From Bacteriovoracia bacterium (GTDB lineage: Bacteria; Bdellovibrionota; Bacteriovoracia; Bacteriovoracales; Bacteriovoracaceae): a stretch of DNA of 30,492 nt. Location of the stretch: positions 1-30,492 of the forward strand of contig JBKHVI010000035.1 of assembly GCA_046570105.1 (NCBI GenBank). The letters run 5' to 3'. The notes under the pieces are model-generated. The model was not told the DNA's origin. It did not search any database and saw only the letters and a list, made by a program, of their open reading frames with translations. Positions 15,221 to 21,116 of the stretch are shown in pieces. The translations under genes were made by a program, and so were the position numbers. Every line of letters begins with the position of its first letter. Position 1 is the first letter of the stretch.

Positions 15221-15317
15221 AATCCATTCTTACCGGCCTACACATTCTTAACATCAAACTCTTTGTTCAAATCCACTCCTCGCGCTATAAGTGCGCCAAC
15301 TAACCCAGGAGTGCTTT

Positions 15318-15674
15318 ATGAAAATGATTCTTGCTATCCTTATGCTCAGTATTGCAATGCCATCGTTTGCCAATATTATTGGCTCAGAACTCTCTTCACG
15401 CCACCAAGCAGTTATTGCTAAGGCCGTTGCTGAGAAGTGCTTCCTCACAAGAGGATTGACTGAAGTAAAAACAGAAGTGCGTGTTGATCGCGTTGATCAA
15501 GGTGTAATTGATTACTATTACACTTCTGAATTGACTGCTGTTGATTACATTGATCAAGGTGTGTTTGATACTTACAAAGTTATCGTAGAGTCAGCGATTT
15601 TCTCTGGTTACGACCATGAAGCTCAAGACTGGGGTTTGATCGACGTTCAATCAGTTAAATGTACTATGCTTTAA
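15318..15674 (+). CDS. Small secreted hypothetical protein with a duplicated DxxDQGV motif
   Basis: AGGAG SD; signal peptide ending SFA-N; two Cys; followed by its own terminator. Start moved to ATG 15318. Confidence 0.75.
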   Translation: MKMILAILMLSIAMPSFANIIGSELSSRHQAVIAKAVAEKCFLTRGLTEVKTEVRVDRVDQGVIDYYYTSELTAVDYIDQGVFDTYKVIVESAIFSGYDHEAQDWGLIDVQSVKCTML

Positions 15675-15687
15675 TTTGTTTTTTGAT

Positions 15688-15718
15688 AGGGGTGGGCAGT
15701 TCAACCCACCCCTTCTTG
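15688..15718 (+). terminator. Rho-independent terminator
   Basis: AGGGGTGGG-cagttcaa-CCCACCCCT followed by TCTTG. Confidence 0.7.
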
Positions 15719-15766
15719 TCTCGGCGGGACTAGATTTTATCGATAGTTTCACGTTATCCTTAGTTC

Positions 15767-16141
15767 ATGATTATTAGCCTAGAACCCTTCGAAAAAGCCC
15801 TAAAAACTCTTGAATCAGCCCTCAAAACAGATTCACCAAGTGATCTTGAGCGTGATGGCATTATTCAGCGCTTTGAGTACTGCATCGAGCTATCCTGGAA
15901 GACGGCTAAAAAGAAACTTGACCAGAACGCTATTGAGACGGACTCACCAAGAGAAGTTTATCGCCAGATGGCTAAACTGAGGTGGATCGCTGACGCGGCT
16001 ATTTGGTTTGAGTTTTTGAATGCCAGAAATAAAACAAGTCATATGTATCGTGAGGATGTTGCTAAAGAAATTTTTGCAATTGTTCCATCCTTCCTAGTAG
16101 AAGCCCAATTACTGCTAAAAAAACTTAAAGCTCTGACCTGA
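15767..16141 (+). CDS. HEPN-domain toxin, HI0074/nucleotidyltransferase substrate-binding family
   Basis: RDGIIQRFEYCIELSWK and SPREVYR motifs; R87-NKTS-H92-M-Y94 (RX4HXY). Confidence 0.9.
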   Translation: MIISLEPFEKALKTLESALKTDSPSDLERDGIIQRFEYCIELSWKTAKKKLDQNAIETDSPREVYRQMAKLRWIADAAIWFEFLNARNKTSHMYREDVAKEIFAIVPSFLVEAQLLLKKLKALT

Positions 16142-17148
16142 TGAAAGCATTCGGTATTGATCAGAAATACTTAGAGCTCCTCGCGAAACTATTCGAAAAG
16201 CATCTTGCTGATATTCCTTCGACAAAAGTGTGGATTTTTGGTTCTCGGGCCAAAGGCAAACAAAGACCCAATTCTGATATTGATTTACTGATCTCTGCTA
16301 AGACAAAAAAAGTTAAAGACAAGATTACTGGGCTTAGTGCGGATCTTAAGGATTCGGATCTTCCTTTTGTTGTCGATATTGTTTATCAGCCAGAATTAGC
16401 TGAAGAGTTCAAAGCAGATGTTCTTAGAACAAGAATGATGTTTTGGAATCCAGAGATGATTAGAAAGAGAACACCCTGGAGAGTTTGTCCACTAGGGCAG
16501 TACTGGGTATCACGACATGATAGACCCTATCCATCTGGCATTTCTGATGTTGATGGATACTGTCGATCATACAAAAAAAATAAAGATATTCTTTTTTTCG
16601 ATGAGATTAGACTAATTGAAAAGACTAAATTGTTTAATGAAGCTTTGCAGCCTAATCCATTTAAATCTAAACCTGACTGGGGAAAAGAATATGATAAAAA
16701 AATTGCAGGCTGGGTTAGATACTGGAACGAAACGTTGGAATTAAAAAATAAAATAGATCCCAATTTGATAAAAGCTCTTATCGCTTCGGAGTCAAGTTTC
16801 AATCCAAGTGCTTATACTAAAAATACTCCCAAGTCGAAGCAAGCAAGAGGCTTAATACAAATCATTCCTGAGACAAGACGAATATTAGGTAATATTAATG
16901 GCGAACTTAAGGATCATTTTGTCGATGCAAAACCAGATGAGTTATTTGATCCTACTGTTTCAATCGCTGCCGGCGTAAGGTGGTTAGTTAGGAAACAGCA
17001 ACTCGCTTCACGTAAATTGAAAAGAGAAGCTACTTGGAAGGAAGCAATACTTGAATACAAAGGGATATTAATGCAAAATCCAAAGAAAGGTAAGAATCCT
17101 GTGATCAGGCAGAGCTTAAATGATCTCTACAGTGATTTAGGTATTTAG
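16141..17148 (+). CDS. Fusion protein: minimal nucleotidyltransferase (MNT) antitoxin + Cys/His linker + SLT lytic transglycosylase domain
   Basis: aa 1-102: G34S-X10-D46ID48 and VD79IV; aa 205-310: IDPNLIKALIASE217SSFNP, ARGLIQI, FDPTVSIAAGVRWL, AILEYKG. TGATG overlap with the HEPN gene. Confidence 0.8.
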   Translation: MKAFGIDQKYLELLAKLFEKHLADIPSTKVWIFGSRAKGKQRPNSDIDLLISAKTKKVKDKITGLSADLKDSDLPFVVDIVYQPELAEEFKADVLRTRMMFWNPEMIRKRTPWRVCPLGQYWVSRHDRPYPSGISDVDGYCRSYKKNKDILFFDEIRLIEKTKLFNEALQPNPFKSKPDWGKEYDKKIAGWVRYWNETLELKNKIDPNLIKALIASESSFNPSAYTKNTPKSKQARGLIQIIPETRRILGNINGELKDHFVDAKPDELFDPTVSIAAGVRWLVRKQQLASRKLKREATWKEAILEYKGILMQNPKKGKNPVIRQSLNDLYSDLGI

Positions 17149-17639
17149 TAAAAAATCTTTTCGATCTCATCCTCCTCTAACCACTGACCTTTAAGCGTTT
17201 TTAGTCGAGAAATATACCATAATTCAAAATCCCCAGTGTGTTTGTGGCGAGGAAGTTGTGCAGCAAAGACACACACATATTTTTCATTTTGAATTAAATC
17301 ATACCATTCATTTATTATTTGGGTTGCGTCCCATTTAAAATAGGGTGTTAATTCGTAATATGCCTGTATATTAAATTTAAATATTCGTAATGAAGGGATA
17401 TCTCTAGGGCCTTGATAATTCAATTGCGTAGTAGTGACTAGTATCCGCTCTACTGGAAAACAATTCCACTCATTAAAACTTGCCCAGAAGTCAAAGTCTG
17501 AAGTTGCTGAATTCATGGCCGGAAAATTACTTGCTTCTATTTCAAGTTCTAAATCCTCCTCATTGAGGATTTGATAAGCATCGATCTGATCTCGAACTGA
17601 TTGCATCTCTAAAAAAAGTGATAAAAATATTTCACCCAT
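17145..17639 (-). CDS. AT-rich acidic hypothetical protein convergent with the MNT-SLT gene
   Basis: Open frame with a GGGGGG SD-like run before ATG 17639; stop codons interlock in TTAG at 17145-17148. Confidence 0.65.
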   Translation of the reverse strand: MGEIFLSLFLEMQSVRDQIDAYQILNEEDLELEIEASNFPAMNSATSDFDFWASFNEWNCFPVERILVTTTQLNYQGPRDIPSLRIFKFNIQAYYELTPYFKWDATQIINEWYDLIQNEKYVCVFAAQLPRHKHTGDFELWYISRLKTLKGQWLEEDEIEKIFY

Positions 17640-17716
17640 ATTTCCCCCCAAGGAAAGTATGGAATCGAGATTGCATAATAAATTAGATAAAAGAAAGCTC
17701 TAAGAGGTTGCGGGTT

Positions 17717-20700
17717 CTAAGTTAAGAGCATCGAGAAATCGTCTTTCGTCAATTTCCCACTAAAGTATTCATCATCATCCTCGGCCATCAAATCACGGAA
17801 CAATTCGCGTTTGGCCTGCTGGAGAGTCAGAACTTTTTCTTCCACAGAATTTTTCATGAGTGGACGATAAACCGTCAGTTTATTTTCTTGTCCGATACGG
17901 TGAGCTCGGTCAACTGCTTGGCGTTCAACGGCTGGGTTCCACCATGGATCCATCAAGAAAATATAAGAAGCGGCGGTGAGGTTCAAACCGAAACCACCGG
18001 CCTTCAAGCTAATTAAGAATACTTGCGCATCACCTTCTTGGAACAGCTCCACTTGCTCAGTACGCTTCTTAATGGTTTGTGAACCATCAATACGGGCGTA
18101 CTTCCAGCTGTTGGCGCGGATCTTGTCTTGGATGATGTCGAGATATGTGGTGAACTGCGAGAACACCAAAACCTTGTGACCTTCTTCCATCAACTGAGAA
18201 AGATTATCCATCAAGAAATCAACCTTGGTGGAATAGAGGCTTGGTCCTTGCTTCTGCCACAGACACATCTGACGAAGCTCTAAAAGTGATTTTAAGACTT
18301 CACCATAGCGCTTGGTAAATGTTGGATTCACCATCTGTGAGCGCACCAAATCGAGACGCTTCTGATAGTTCTCACGCTCAATATCCGTGAAATCGAGGAA
18401 CACATGGTTTTCAATTTTTTCTGGCAACTCTTTTAGAACTTGCTCTTTAGTACGACGAAGAATGAATGGCTTAACTGTACGACGAGCGAGGAGACGATTT
18501 TTGGCTTTGGAGCTTGAGCGCACTAAAGACATATCACCCCAAACACCGGGAACACACAAATCCATAATATTGTAGAATTCGGCGAGATCGTTTTCTACTG
18601 GCGTACCTGTCAAACAGATACGGAATTTAGCTTTAAGTTGGCGAGCGGCATTGGCGCCAAGGCTTCGGATGTTTTTTAGATGCTGAACTTCATCAAAAAT
18701 AATGATGTCGAAATCTTCACGCGCAAAAGCTCCCAGAGATTCTTTTTTCATTAGGCCGTAGCTGGTGAGCACGACTTGTGTTTCTTCCGGGATTTCACGC
18801 TCTTCGCCGTAGAAAATTCCCCACTTAAGATTAGAGAATTTTTCTAATTCGTTTTTCCAGTTATAAAGAATCGAAACCGGACAAATGATAATGGCGCGCT
18901 TAATTTTGCCTTCATCCATGAGGGATTGCAGCAGCATGATGGTCTGGAGTGTTTTACCTAGACCCATATCATCAGCTAGACACGCACCAAAACCGTGATC
19001 CCATAAGAAGCGCAGCCACTGGAAGCCAGTGGTTTGATAAGGACGAGCAATTTCTTGATAGCGTTTCGGCAGCTCAACTTGCGGCATCGATTCAAGATTC
19101 ATGATCTGCTCACAGAAGGCTTCTTCTTCTTTGGTGAGTGCGCCATCGACACCGAGACGCTTGAGTTCAAATAACTCAAAGACGCGGGCGCGGTGGAGAG
19201 TCAGACCAAAGCGGCGCATGCCAGGGGCACCGCCTTCTTTTTTCTCACCCTCAAGTTTCGTATAGCGCTTCATAAAGCGCAGCAGATCTTTTTCTTGGTC
19301 GGTCAAAAGCACGAGACCGTTTTCAGTGAGAATATAGTTATCAGTGATCTCGGCACTACGAATGACTTCAAGATCCTCATCACTAATGACTAGATCAAGC
19401 TCAAACCAGTCGAGGCGTCTTTGATTGCGCTCGAAACGAATGGCGCTCTTCCAATTACGAACCGCCACATCGTTGTACATGAGAGGAATACTGAGAGCTA
19501 AGAGACGTGTATGTAGCGCTGAAACACCTTCGAGCAGAGTGTTCTTCGGAAGCTGCATTATGATCTTGCGCTCTTCTGGTGGAGAGAAAACTGTGCGCCA
19601 GACTTGCTCTGTTAAAGTATCTAAGAGCGCCAGCATGACTTTTTTAAACATGCTGGTTGAAAGCGTGTAGAAAGCGCGATGATGGGAATCCCAAAAAGGA
19701 ACATCTGAATCATTGATGACGACATCAACCCAATCCTGGATACGCTGTTTTTGACTGGCGCCGTGCAGGTGCTTGCGATGGATGAGAGTTTCGCGGCCAA
19801 AGTCTTCTACCAGATGATGGTAGAAGGTACTTGAATCATTTTTAGTTCTGAAGCTTCCGCCCCAACCACCTTCCGTCACGAAAATCTTGAATGGCTCCGG
19901 TGGTTCAACTAAACGATTCAACTCATCAGTCAGCTCAATTTGCAGATTAAGAAAACTTTTGCGAGTCGAAGGCATGATACCAAAACGGATTTGCACCGGT
20001 TGTGGCACGATCTGTTTCCAGTCCATACCTTCCAAGCGCAAATCAAGAATATCTTTGTCGCGTGTTTCTTTAAAAATACGCAGCCATTCATTTACGCTGA
20101 GCCATGGATCGAGTTGTTTGACTCGTTTCATGGTTTCCATTAATTCATGAGGCAGATCAAGAGCGACGCCTGTGCGCCAGTTAAAAACAGTGAAAACGTC
20201 GAAGAGTGAAATGTCTTTTGACTCTACACCTTGCTCATCTTTCCAGCTAAAGCAGGCGATATGCTTACCTTGCGCGCTGGGTAGGTCTTTAAGATTTTCT
20301 TCTTCAGAAGTTGGAACTAAATCCACAACGAGAGTCCCGCTCCACTTAATAGGAGCAGGGTAGGTCACGACTTTGCGATTTAATAATTGATAGCTGACTG
20401 AACCAAAAGTTGAACTTGGTTTGGCACCTTGCAGATAAGAGGCCTGCTTAACCATCATACCCATGTGAACGGGTGTTACGCCCTCGCCAAAGAAACTAGG
20501 TCCTGAAGTTGTTTTGAGCTTTTTGTCTGCTCCAGCGGCAGAGAATTGTTGCCAGCGAAACCACAGAGCGGCGCCATGAACACAGGTGCCTTCTTGCGGC
20601 CAGAGTGGACAGTTGCATTTCGCTTGAAAGACTTGTCCTTCTTTGCGCCAAGTGAATTTAGTCTCGTAAGTGGTATTGTTGTCGCCCACGATGCCAGAGA

Positions 20701-20830
20701 CGACTAAGTGAACGTCGAGCTGGCCTTTGATGAAGGAGAGTGACACTCGACCCAGCTCAACCAGCTTGCGCGCTTGAAAGCGCACACTGTCGCTATAGCC
20801 CGCTTCAACCAGGGCCGAGACTTCGCTCAT
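17717..20830 (-). CDS. SWIM zinc finger-SNF2 family helicase/ATPase
   Basis: SWIM CNC...CVH; LADDMGLGKT, DEVQ, TGTP.EN, SLKAGGFGLNL and DPWWNPAVE.QA.DRAHRIGQ motifs. ATG 20830 preferred over TTG 20851. Confidence 0.92.
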   Translation of the reverse strand: MSEVSALVEAGYSDSVRFQARKLVELGRVSLSFIKGQLDVHLVVSGIVGDNNTTYETKFTWRKEGQVFQAKCNCPLWPQEGTCVHGAALWFRWQQFSAAGADKKLKTTSGPSFFGEGVTPVHMGMMVKQASYLQGAKPSSTFGSVSYQLLNRKVVTYPAPIKWSGTLVVDLVPTSEEENLKDLPSAQGKHIACFSWKDEQGVESKDISLFDVFTVFNWRTGVALDLPHELMETMKRVKQLDPWLSVNEWLRIFKETRDKDILDLRLEGMDWKQIVPQPVQIRFGIMPSTRKSFLNLQIELTDELNRLVEPPEPFKIFVTEGGWGGSFRTKNDSSTFYHHLVEDFGRETLIHRKHLHGASQKQRIQDWVDVVINDSDVPFWDSHHRAFYTLSTSMFKKVMLALLDTLTEQVWRTVFSPPEERKIIMQLPKNTLLEGVSALHTRLLALSIPLMYNDVAVRNWKSAIRFERNQRRLDWFELDLVISDEDLEVIRSAEITDNYILTENGLVLLTDQEKDLLRFMKRYTKLEGEKKEGGAPGMRRFGLTLHRARVFELFELKRLGVDGALTKEEEAFCEQIMNLESMPQVELPKRYQEIARPYQTTGFQWLRFLWDHGFGACLADDMGLGKTLQTIMLLQSLMDEGKIKRAIIICPVSILYNWKNELEKFSNLKWGIFYGEEREIPEETQVVLTSYGLMKKESLGAFAREDFDIIIFDEVQHLKNIRSLGANAARQLKAKFRICLTGTPVENDLAEFYNIMDLCVPGVWGDMSLVRSSSKAKNRLLARRTVKPFILRRTKEQVLKELPEKIENHVFLDFTDIERENYQKRLDLVRSQMVNPTFTKRYGEVLKSLLELRQMCLWQKQGPSLYSTKVDFLMDNLSQLMEEGHKVLVFSQFTTYLDIIQDKIRANSWKYARIDGSQTIKKRTEQVELFQEGDAQVFLISLKAGGFGLNLTAASYIFLMDPWWNPAVERQAVDRAHRIGQENKLTVYRPLMKNSVEEKVLTLQQAKRELFRDLMAEDDDEYFSGKLTKDDFSMLLT

Positions 20831-21116
20831 AATGTCGGGTGTATCACTCAAAAGTTTAATCCTGCGCTGCGTTTAAAAGAATTAAGCATACAGGAAAAAG
20901 CTCGATCTGGCGTTAGAAAAAGCCGGGAAGTTATCAAATTCAACCATCTCATCCTGGCGCAGAGATTCGTTAATACCCAATAGTAGGTGCCAGGATGAAT
21001 TCATGTTTCTAGTAGAAAGCTTGAGGCGTCCTCAAGTCATATTTTGAATTTAAAAATAAGCTTTGAGCTTCGGACTTTATGGTTGAATTTGAGATTACTT
21101 AAATTGAAAAATGAGC

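Follow-up and report, generated by a model that had tools for sequence, protein, structure and literature searches.

Architecture of the locus

The DNA analyzed here, hereafter the window, is a stretch of 30,492 nucleotides from the genome assembly of a Bacteriovoracia bacterium (GCA_046570105.1, contig JBKHVI010000035.1, positions 1 to 30,492, forward strand). Near its middle lies a toxin-antitoxin (TA) pair of the HEPN-MNT type whose antitoxin continues, in the same open reading frame (ORF), into a small Cys/His domain and a lytic-transglycosylase (SLT) domain. A third gene, which we call the partner, runs toward this fused gene from the opposite strand. The three genes and the domains of the fused protein are laid out as follows.

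15767-16141, + strand: HEPN toxin gene of the HI0074 / NTase_sub_bind family, 124 amino acids (aa); the RX4HXY motif is R87..H92.Y94
16141-17148, + strand: fused ORF with MNT, Cys/His and SLT domains, 335 aa; stop codon at 17146-17148
16141-16455, + strand: MNT antitoxin domain, residues 1-105 of the 335-aa ORF; GS-x10-DID and D79, assigned by Pfam and by fold
16462-16620, + strand: Cys/His beta-domain, residues ~108-160; conserved Cys/His consensus, predicted docking site of the partner
16663-17148, + strand: SLT / GH23 lytic-transglycosylase domain, residues ~175-335; E217-S218, GLIQ 237-240, RW 280-281, EYKG 305-308
17145-17639, − strand: partner gene, 164 aa from the ATG at 17639; convergent, its stop overlapping the SLT stop; GGGGGGA before the ATG

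The TGA of the HEPN gene and the ATG of the fused ORF have base 16141 in common, so that these adjacent, co-oriented genes overlap as TGATG. This bears out the coupling that a first-pass annotation, made from the letters of the window, had read between the two ORFs. The same gene order, HEPN followed by an MNT-SLT fusion, was found at 7 further loci; with the window, fusions of this architecture thus stand downstream of HI0074-type genes at 8 loci. Three features lie beyond that annotation: the ORF at 17145-17639 is a conserved partner, residues 108-160 are a Cys/His domain where a linker had been assumed, and the two-gene cassette made of the Cys/His-SLT module and the partner occurs phylum-wide, on many TA types.

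An intact HEPN-MNT pair

Both halves of the TA pair carry the signatures of their families. The HEPN ORF matches Pfam NTase_sub_bind (PF08780, E 7.2e-33) and NCBIfam HI0074 (TIGR01987, E 8.6e-26), in both cases above the cut-offs, and is the sole PF08780 match in its genome. None of 7 orthologues departs from R87, N88, S91, H92 and Y94; the eighth is truncated by a contig end. The fused ORF matches Polbeta (1.4e-11, residues 29-98) and NTP_transf_2 (5.8e-9), and G34, S35, D46, D48 and D79 are invariant in all 8 fused orthologues; the MntA equivalog of NCBIfam scores 39.3 bits, under its cut-off of 60. An AlphaFold2 (AF2) model of the 335-aa protein, built on a 42-row alignment, has a mean pLDDT of 89.7. 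Its residues 1-105 superpose on the MNT chain of a HEPN-MNT complex (8xeh_E; Z 15.6, root-mean-square deviation (rmsd) 1.7, 101 aligned) and on HI0073 (1no5, Z 14.3), and a Foldseek match of the MNT half has an E value of 3e-6. Judged by these motifs, the locus holds an intact HI0074/HI0073-type HEPN-MNT pair with all the features of the family, and the RX4HXY motif and complete N-terminal MNT that had been read from the letters both stand. By analogy with the family, the MNT half would presumably silence the HEPN RNase by AMPylation of Y94.

A natural experiment bears on the role of the MNT half. Fourteen proteins of ~330 aa carry the module behind an N-terminal domain that is homologous to MNT (hhalign 94.6%, E 7e-8, 99 columns) and lacks both GS and DxD. 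In a scan of upstream genes, HEPN preceded 8 of 8 intact MNT fusions versus 0 of 14 of these dead-MNT forms. Antitoxin chemistry is thus kept only while HEPN is present, which fits the MNT half acting as the antitoxin of HEPN. The rest of the fused protein persists in the dead-MNT forms without either HEPN or MNT chemistry. A quick tree places the intact forms, the dead forms and the fusions to DUF4325 in one 33-row clade (SH-aLRT 93), and on its starred branches the dead forms need at least 3 changes.

A Cys/His-SLT module

The remainder of the protein, residues ~108-335, is an autonomous unit made of the Cys/His beta-domain and the SLT domain, not a linker followed by a domain. The beta-domain has the consensus PWRxCPxGxHWVxxHxR...GHCRxNP, and the window shows Y121 and Y140 where most members have His; it matched no Pfam family. 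The 42-row alignment shows W113, C116, G119 and C141 without variation and H126 with at least 90% conservation. A Cys/His profile run against 1.84 billion representatives returned 246 proteins, 69 of them at least 200 aa long. SLT is present in 61 of these 69, the other 8 having no Pfam family, and the architectures include 7 cases of MNT+SLT, 2 of HepT+SLT, 3 of DUF4325+SLT and 1 of YhcG_C+SLT. The Cys/His domain was seen solely in the company of SLT.

The SLT assignment of the first-pass annotation agrees with both domain mapping and fold. Pfam SLT (PF01464) covers residues 200-287 (E 6.5e-14), and residues ~175-335 of the AF2 model adopt a lysozyme-like fold that superposes on MltF, phiKZ gp144, MltE and MltC (Z 11.4-11.9). 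Across 42 module sequences there is no variation at S218, G237, Q240, R280, W281 or K307, and conservation reaches at least 90% at E217 and Y306. By its motifs, the domain looks like an active lytic transglycosylase and is predicted to cleave peptidoglycan.

The reported lack of an export signal holds for the window and for the module at large. The N-terminus of the fused protein is the MNT fold, with no export signal or lipobox. Of 75 unique module proteins, a crude test for hydrophobic segments singled out 1, a false positive produced by a helix of a dead MNT domain. In 46 of these 75 proteins only a short N-terminal tail, often lysine-rich, precedes the module, giving a stand-alone form of ~240 aa. 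PHROG endolysin and lytic-tail profiles match the module with E values of 8.6e-8 to 7e-7. A tblastn search of phages and plasmids for the whole module gave matches at the level of the SLT domain only (5 phage and 71 plasmid records, 0 covering 80% of the query), and a phage or plasmid origin of the module was rejected on these grounds.

The fusion is genuine and conserved

The first-pass annotation had entertained a chance read-through between two genes. Met106 can indeed be read as a former start, and stand-alone modules begin a few residues before PWR. Against this stands the recurrence of the fusion. At least 12 homologue clusters (P0001-P0008, P0010 and P0013-P0015, among 120 listed) carry both nucleotidyltransferase and SLT Pfam domains, with identities as low as 39%. 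Among species-representative genomes, a scan returned 371 relatives, from which 80 loci were kept, and the intact MNT-SLT fusion is present at 8 parsed loci including the window (L001, L003-L008 and L027), down to 36% identity; one of them, L006, sits in a complete Peredibacter genome. At 50% identity the MNT+SLT fusions form 7 protein clusters.

The junction itself is equally secure. Three sequencing runs of another study yielded contigs that cover 15700-17368, 15700-17700 and 15700-16674; within the ORFs these differ by substitutions only, and they show no indel at the junction. Where the two parts meet, the sequence (R/K)IPFWD..I is conserved, dead-MNT forms included. Because the fusion recurs across loci and clusters and the junction is contiguous in the contigs of the other study, we reject chance read-through: an assembly error, or a recent accidental read-through of two separate genes, is extremely improbable.

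A conserved partner gene

Directly 3′ of the module, 75 of 85 downstream neighbors code for members of one HMM family, 109-218 aa in length. These neighbors were taken from 64 module genes (63 of 82 loci, first set) and 21 module genes (21 of 30 loci, second set) recognized by a motif search. A second partner type, of about 275 aa, accounts for 8 of the 85; a further one has no such gene, and another is an orientation artefact of the script. The usual partner gene mostly lies on the same strand as the module gene and overlaps it by 4-16 nt. It is on the opposite strand, with overlapping stop codons, in the window and at L003, L005 and L027; the window's partner matches the co-directional partner at L050 with an E value of 2e-21. 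In other strains, 1-nt deletions occur at 17646 or 17650, between TTG 17651 and ATG 17639, and the latter is therefore most likely the start.

A crude test scored a signal-like N-terminus in 67 of 73 unique partners, 12 of which also have a lipobox-like motif. Among the six with no flagged signal, four look like signals missed by the rule, and those of the window and of L003 are truly without one. The same two have also lost most of the conserved cysteines of the family. Given this loss of signal peptide and cysteines, all three proteins of the window are predicted to be cytoplasmic. The partner family had no match in Pfam, PHROGs or PADLOC; a word-based search for homologues gave 2 proteins, and the protein Atlas gave no usable match.

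The AF2 model of the window's partner has a pLDDT of 94.4. When it was paired with residues 105-335 of the fused protein, complex prediction gave an ipSAE of 0.72 (runs of 0.77, 0.69 and 0.72), and the best control gave 0.00. The runs had at least 66% of their contacts in common, with a partner pLDDT of at least 81. The ipSAE mark is reached by 116 of 157 solved complexes and by 2 of 215 mismatched pairs, a rough yardstick since our own alignments were used. The predicted interface comprises residues 110-147 and 154 of the beta-domain plus residues 250 and 262-264. These models support the prediction that the partner binds the beta-domain of the module.

The second partner type, ~270-290 aa long, has a signal peptide and carries the motif NWTGGAHCCH (L023, L031, L033, L042, L058, L060, L061 and L093). 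It gives a weak FG-GAP-like Pfam match (E 0.0032), is unrelated to the usual partner, and replaces it in one module clade.

The cassette rides on TA operons

In 38 of 64 cases the gene just upstream of the module is TA-like or resembles an abortive infection (Abi) gene, a descriptive count in which L002 and L003 were placed separately, L002 by BLAST clustering. Many genes in this upstream position run into the start codon of the module. The families found there are the following.

HEPN at the 8 fusion loci (one truncated by a contig end); AbiEii/AbiEi; AAA_14-DUF4143; Schlafen-AlbA_2/HATPase_c_4
DUF4258; DUF2442; Zeta-like kinases; HicB; BrnT/BrnA; Phd; PIN
RelE, HigB and Gp49; DUF6036; RhuM; HATPase before each DUF4325-SLT fusion; an MNT+HepT pair

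Among predatory bacteria, no fewer than a dozen TA or Abi families thus have the two-gene cassette attached at their 3′ end. The HepT-SLT loci, where an MNT gene lies upstream and a partner gene downstream, are instructive. Their order is MNT-HepT, and the fused gene is again the last TA gene; the module therefore fuses to whichever TA gene comes last. That this is the antitoxin in HEPN-MNT order and the toxin in MNT-HepT order argues against an antitoxin-specific logic. The module also occurs without a TA neighbor, for example at the B. stolpii loci L039, L043, L053 and L063. PADLOC matched the MNT half only (candidate PDC-S09 and others), with no match for HEPN, the module region or the partners, and a known defense system was set aside as the identity of the locus.

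Two neighborhoods deserve separate mention. On one Bacteriovoracaceae contig (L036:3000-7800), a dense TA island is formed by two dead-MNT-SLT and partner cassettes, separated by 2.5 kb, and the BrnT/BrnA-like and ParE/Phd pairs interleaved with them. In one lineage (L020:2931-3839 and L104), the gene overlapping the start of the module is an LD-carboxypeptidase (Peptidase_S66) instead of a TA gene. LD-carboxypeptidase is a cytoplasmic enzyme of peptidoglycan recycling.

A proposed composite of two conflict-type units

We read the locus as a composite of two conflict-type units, an intact HEPN-MNT pair and an absorbed effector/binder cassette, with each half of the fused protein keeping its own job; we put the probability of this composite at roughly 0.5. 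The cassette would typically close a TA or Abi operon, with translational coupling to the genes before it. The 335-aa fusion would have arisen in an ancestor shared by several Bacteriovoracia lineages, through loss of the stop codon that separated the module gene from the final TA gene, here MNT. The MNT half would serve HEPN. The SLT half would be a peptidoglycan-cleaving effector that is held or neutralized by the partner, in the manner of effector-immunity pairs. The TA operon, for its part, would supply transcription, translational coupling and probably addiction. With the partner predicted to be exported in most members, the enzyme would be expected to meet both peptidoglycan and partner in the periplasm.

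A number of observations weigh against the composite. The window's own partner lacks a signal peptide, and periplasmic-immunity logic therefore cannot apply literally at this locus. No export route was found for the enzyme, which has no signal peptide, and no holin-like gene was seen among the neighbors. Markers of type VI secretion systems (T6SS) and of contractile sheaths (PF05943, PF05638 and PF04984, for TssC, Hcp and contractile sheath) were not found in the window's genome at 87.8% completeness, so that delivery by a T6SS or contractile sheath is disfavored. The region of the catalytic E217 lies outside the predicted interface, and inhibition by the partner is thus not implied; fold searches with the partner gave nothing better than weak OB-like matches (E of at best 0.056 in Foldseek; best Z in VIA 5.9, rmsd 3.1, 84 aligned). 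A control scan found TA-like families also at the +2/+3 genes in 11 of 52 loci, so that part of the TA link is an island effect. Moreover, the neighborhood counts run over related, partly duplicated loci and are descriptive only, loci at which the motif search did not recognize a module gene (the rest of the 82 and of the 30) fall outside them, and the tree comes from a quick search rather than the full one. What is observed is that the cassette sits in TA-rich islands and that its upstream side additionally shows operonic coupling and repeated fusions.

The conserved catalytic residues can also be accommodated by a suicide or lysis module under the control of the TA system, close to the second lytic effector raised in the first-pass annotation, in which firing upon phage infection or envelope damage would let the SLT domain reach the wall through a damaged inner membrane, with the partner as a safety catch. 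The module is operonic with, and often translationally coupled to, TA or Abi toxins (38 of 64 upstream genes are TA-like), it lacks a signal peptide as a phage endolysin does and draws the PHROG endolysin and lytic-tail matches given above, and its accessory, patchy occurrence resembles that of defense genes. However, no conserved holin or membrane-disrupting gene lies nearby, exported partners fit poorly with a cytoplasmic safety catch, PADLOC matches neither the module region nor the partner, and the module persists in B. stolpii without a TA neighbor. Self-lysis is, on balance, unlikely. Somewhat less likely again is a released or delivered wall-degrading weapon akin to a bacteriocin or a predation enzyme, which would exit by lysis or an unrecognized route and enter the periplasm of other cells, the exported partner protecting kin and the TA genes being only neighbors and drivers. 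Known effector-immunity pairs likewise have a gene for a signal-less hydrolase and, after it, one for a binder with a signal peptide, and a convergent immunity gene, the layout of the window, is usual for some colicins. Structural neighbors include Tse3-Tsi3 (4luq; Z 8.1, rmsd 4.3, 172 aligned) and TseP (8xcl; Z 7.6, rmsd 3.3, 145 aligned), and the several partner types, the 1-5 module copies per genome and the stand-alone forms with lysine-rich N-terminal tails point the same way. Yet no secretion or uptake machinery was identified, the search for T6SS markers in the window's genome was negative, the partner of the window has no export signal, it would be odd for an exported protein to be fused to cytoplasmic TA domains, and the two invariant Cys with the conserved His resemble a cytoplasmic metal site.

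The remaining alternatives keep everything in the cytoplasm. HEPN, MNT-SLT and partner may form a three-protein switch, in which the partner on the beta-domain, or wall fragments in the SLT groove, would set antitoxin activity, the cassette being a generic trigger or executioner on many TA types. We consider this doubtful; if it were true, the state of the cell wall would be wired to an RNase. A narrower proposal, already made in the first-pass annotation, is that a cytoplasmic SLT domain acts as a sensor, binding muropeptides or a foreign protein and allosterically gating MNT, and so coupling wall status to the HEPN RNase. All three proteins of the window are without export signals, the MNT domain and the module are joined with nearly no linker (MNT ends at ~105, PWR begins at 112), and the predicted docking site of the partner is beside the MNT-proximal beta-domain. 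On the other hand, the module is mostly stand-alone and is also fused to the HepT toxin and to unrelated domains such as DUF4325, its catalytic Glu and substrate-groove motifs are conserved as they are in enzymes, nothing ties its variation to the MNT active site, and dead-MNT forms retain it after HEPN has gone. Gating by the SLT domain fares poorly against these observations, and we hold it to be even more doubtful than the switch.

The TA core of the locus is ordinary; what is new is the cassette joined to it, together with the tendency of this cassette to ride on TA operons. HEPN-MNT pairs are usually treated as closed two-protein systems, and here the antitoxin has long carried a predicted wall-cutting enzyme. 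As the first-pass annotation had noted for the fusion, a literature search, with supplements outside its scope, found no description of an MNT-SLT fusion, of a Cys/His-SLT module, of the partner family, or of a TA operon with an SLT third gene. Passages of PMC12419801, 10.64898/2026.10.19.760177 and PMC5512222 describe no such fusion or cargo, and the words "transglycosylase," "lysozyme" and "peptidoglycan" are absent from the main text of PMC3710099. The composite raises testable questions: what purpose a signal-less lytic transglycosylase serves, what its mostly exported partner does, and why TA operons recruit such cargo.

Relation to known systems

It is useful to set the locus beside the systems that it most resembles. 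With the type VII HEPN-MNT pairs (MntA-HepT of Shewanella, HEPN/MNT of Aphanizomenon, and HI0073/HI0074 of Haemophilus; 8xeh, 1no5, 7bxo and 7ae9) it has in common the overlapping two-gene layout, RX4HXY, and GS-x10-DxD plus a third Asp. The antitoxin of those pairs is a stand-alone protein of ~100-140 aa, whereas that of the window has a 230-aa C-terminal Cys/His and SLT module, and, unlike them, the window has a third conserved gene, the partner. The family-1 GH23 enzymes (MltE, MltC, MltF, Slt70 and phiKZ gp144) provide the fold (Z 9.8-11.9), the Glu-Ser, the GLxQ, and the Tyr-containing C-terminal motif. In contrast to these enzymes, the module has no signal peptide or lipobox, is preceded by the Cys/His domain, lies in TA islands, and comes with a dedicated partner.

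Effector-immunity pairs, such as Tse3-Tsi3 or pesticin and its periplasmic immunity protein, offer the same succession of a signal-less wall hydrolase and a small, signal-bearing predicted binder, as well as several partner types and a patchy, multi-copy distribution. They differ in that no delivery apparatus was found here, the predicted contact is on the beta-domain and not in the catalytic cleft, the cassette is operonic with TA genes, and the window's partner is without a signal peptide. Finally, polyvalent proteins of phages and conjugative elements can join Pol-beta-type nucleotidyltransferase and lysozyme or transglycosylase domains in one polypeptide in conflict settings, according to PMC5512222. 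As described there, these are giant, injected, multi-domain proteins of mobile elements, whereas the protein of the window is a 335-aa chromosomal product encoded beside HEPN.

Distribution, history and flanking genes

The module was found in 100 of 401 sampled Bdellovibrionota genomes and in 70 of 203 genera, with 1-5 matches per genome. The cassette is thus accessory and patchy in the phylum. None of 3 other genomes from the window's genus carries it, and in all three the GT9 heptosyltransferase and SNF2 genes adjoin. In more distant relatives (L006-L008 and L027) the cassette is again beside SNF2, on the opposite side in L027. Presence beside SNF2 in distant relatives and absence from genomes of the same genus make an old presence with repeated loss the simplest history. 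The features that flank the cassette in the window are these.

15291-15674, + strand: 127-aa ORF located between cassette and heptosyltransferase gene; signal-like segment in its interior, no Pfam family
15688-15713, + strand: terminator-like G+C hairpin, 9-pair stem with 7 GC, 3′ of the upstream 127-aa gene; left edge of the cassette
17717-20851, − strand: SNF2-family helicase gene, 1044 aa, adjoining the cassette; rpoD and dnaG come next

The cassette is embedded in the core chromosome, with no obvious mobile element. A 50%-identical copy of the 127-aa ORF stands in the same place, there adjoining SNF2, in a genome of the same genus that has no cassette; since the gene is retained in this cassette-free relative, it is not part of the cassette.

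Module contigs at six loci (L037, L052, L057, L071, L031 and L075) come from metagenome-assembled genomes labeled Pseudomonadota, Legionellaceae, Lysobacteraceae or Myxococcota, labels that reflect either mis-binning or transfer beyond Bdellovibrionota. The window's genome holds a second cassette as well. On contig C5 (L002:1076-2272, − strand), a gene for a DUF4143-type ATPase precedes a dead-MNT-SLT gene in which an inserted Mutator-family transposase has taken the place of the final codons. At the start of contig C41 (L122:92-634, + strand), a 180-aa, signal-bearing partner lies beside an LpxC-like gene. This second cassette is probably split across C5 and C41 because the assembly broke at the insertion sequence.

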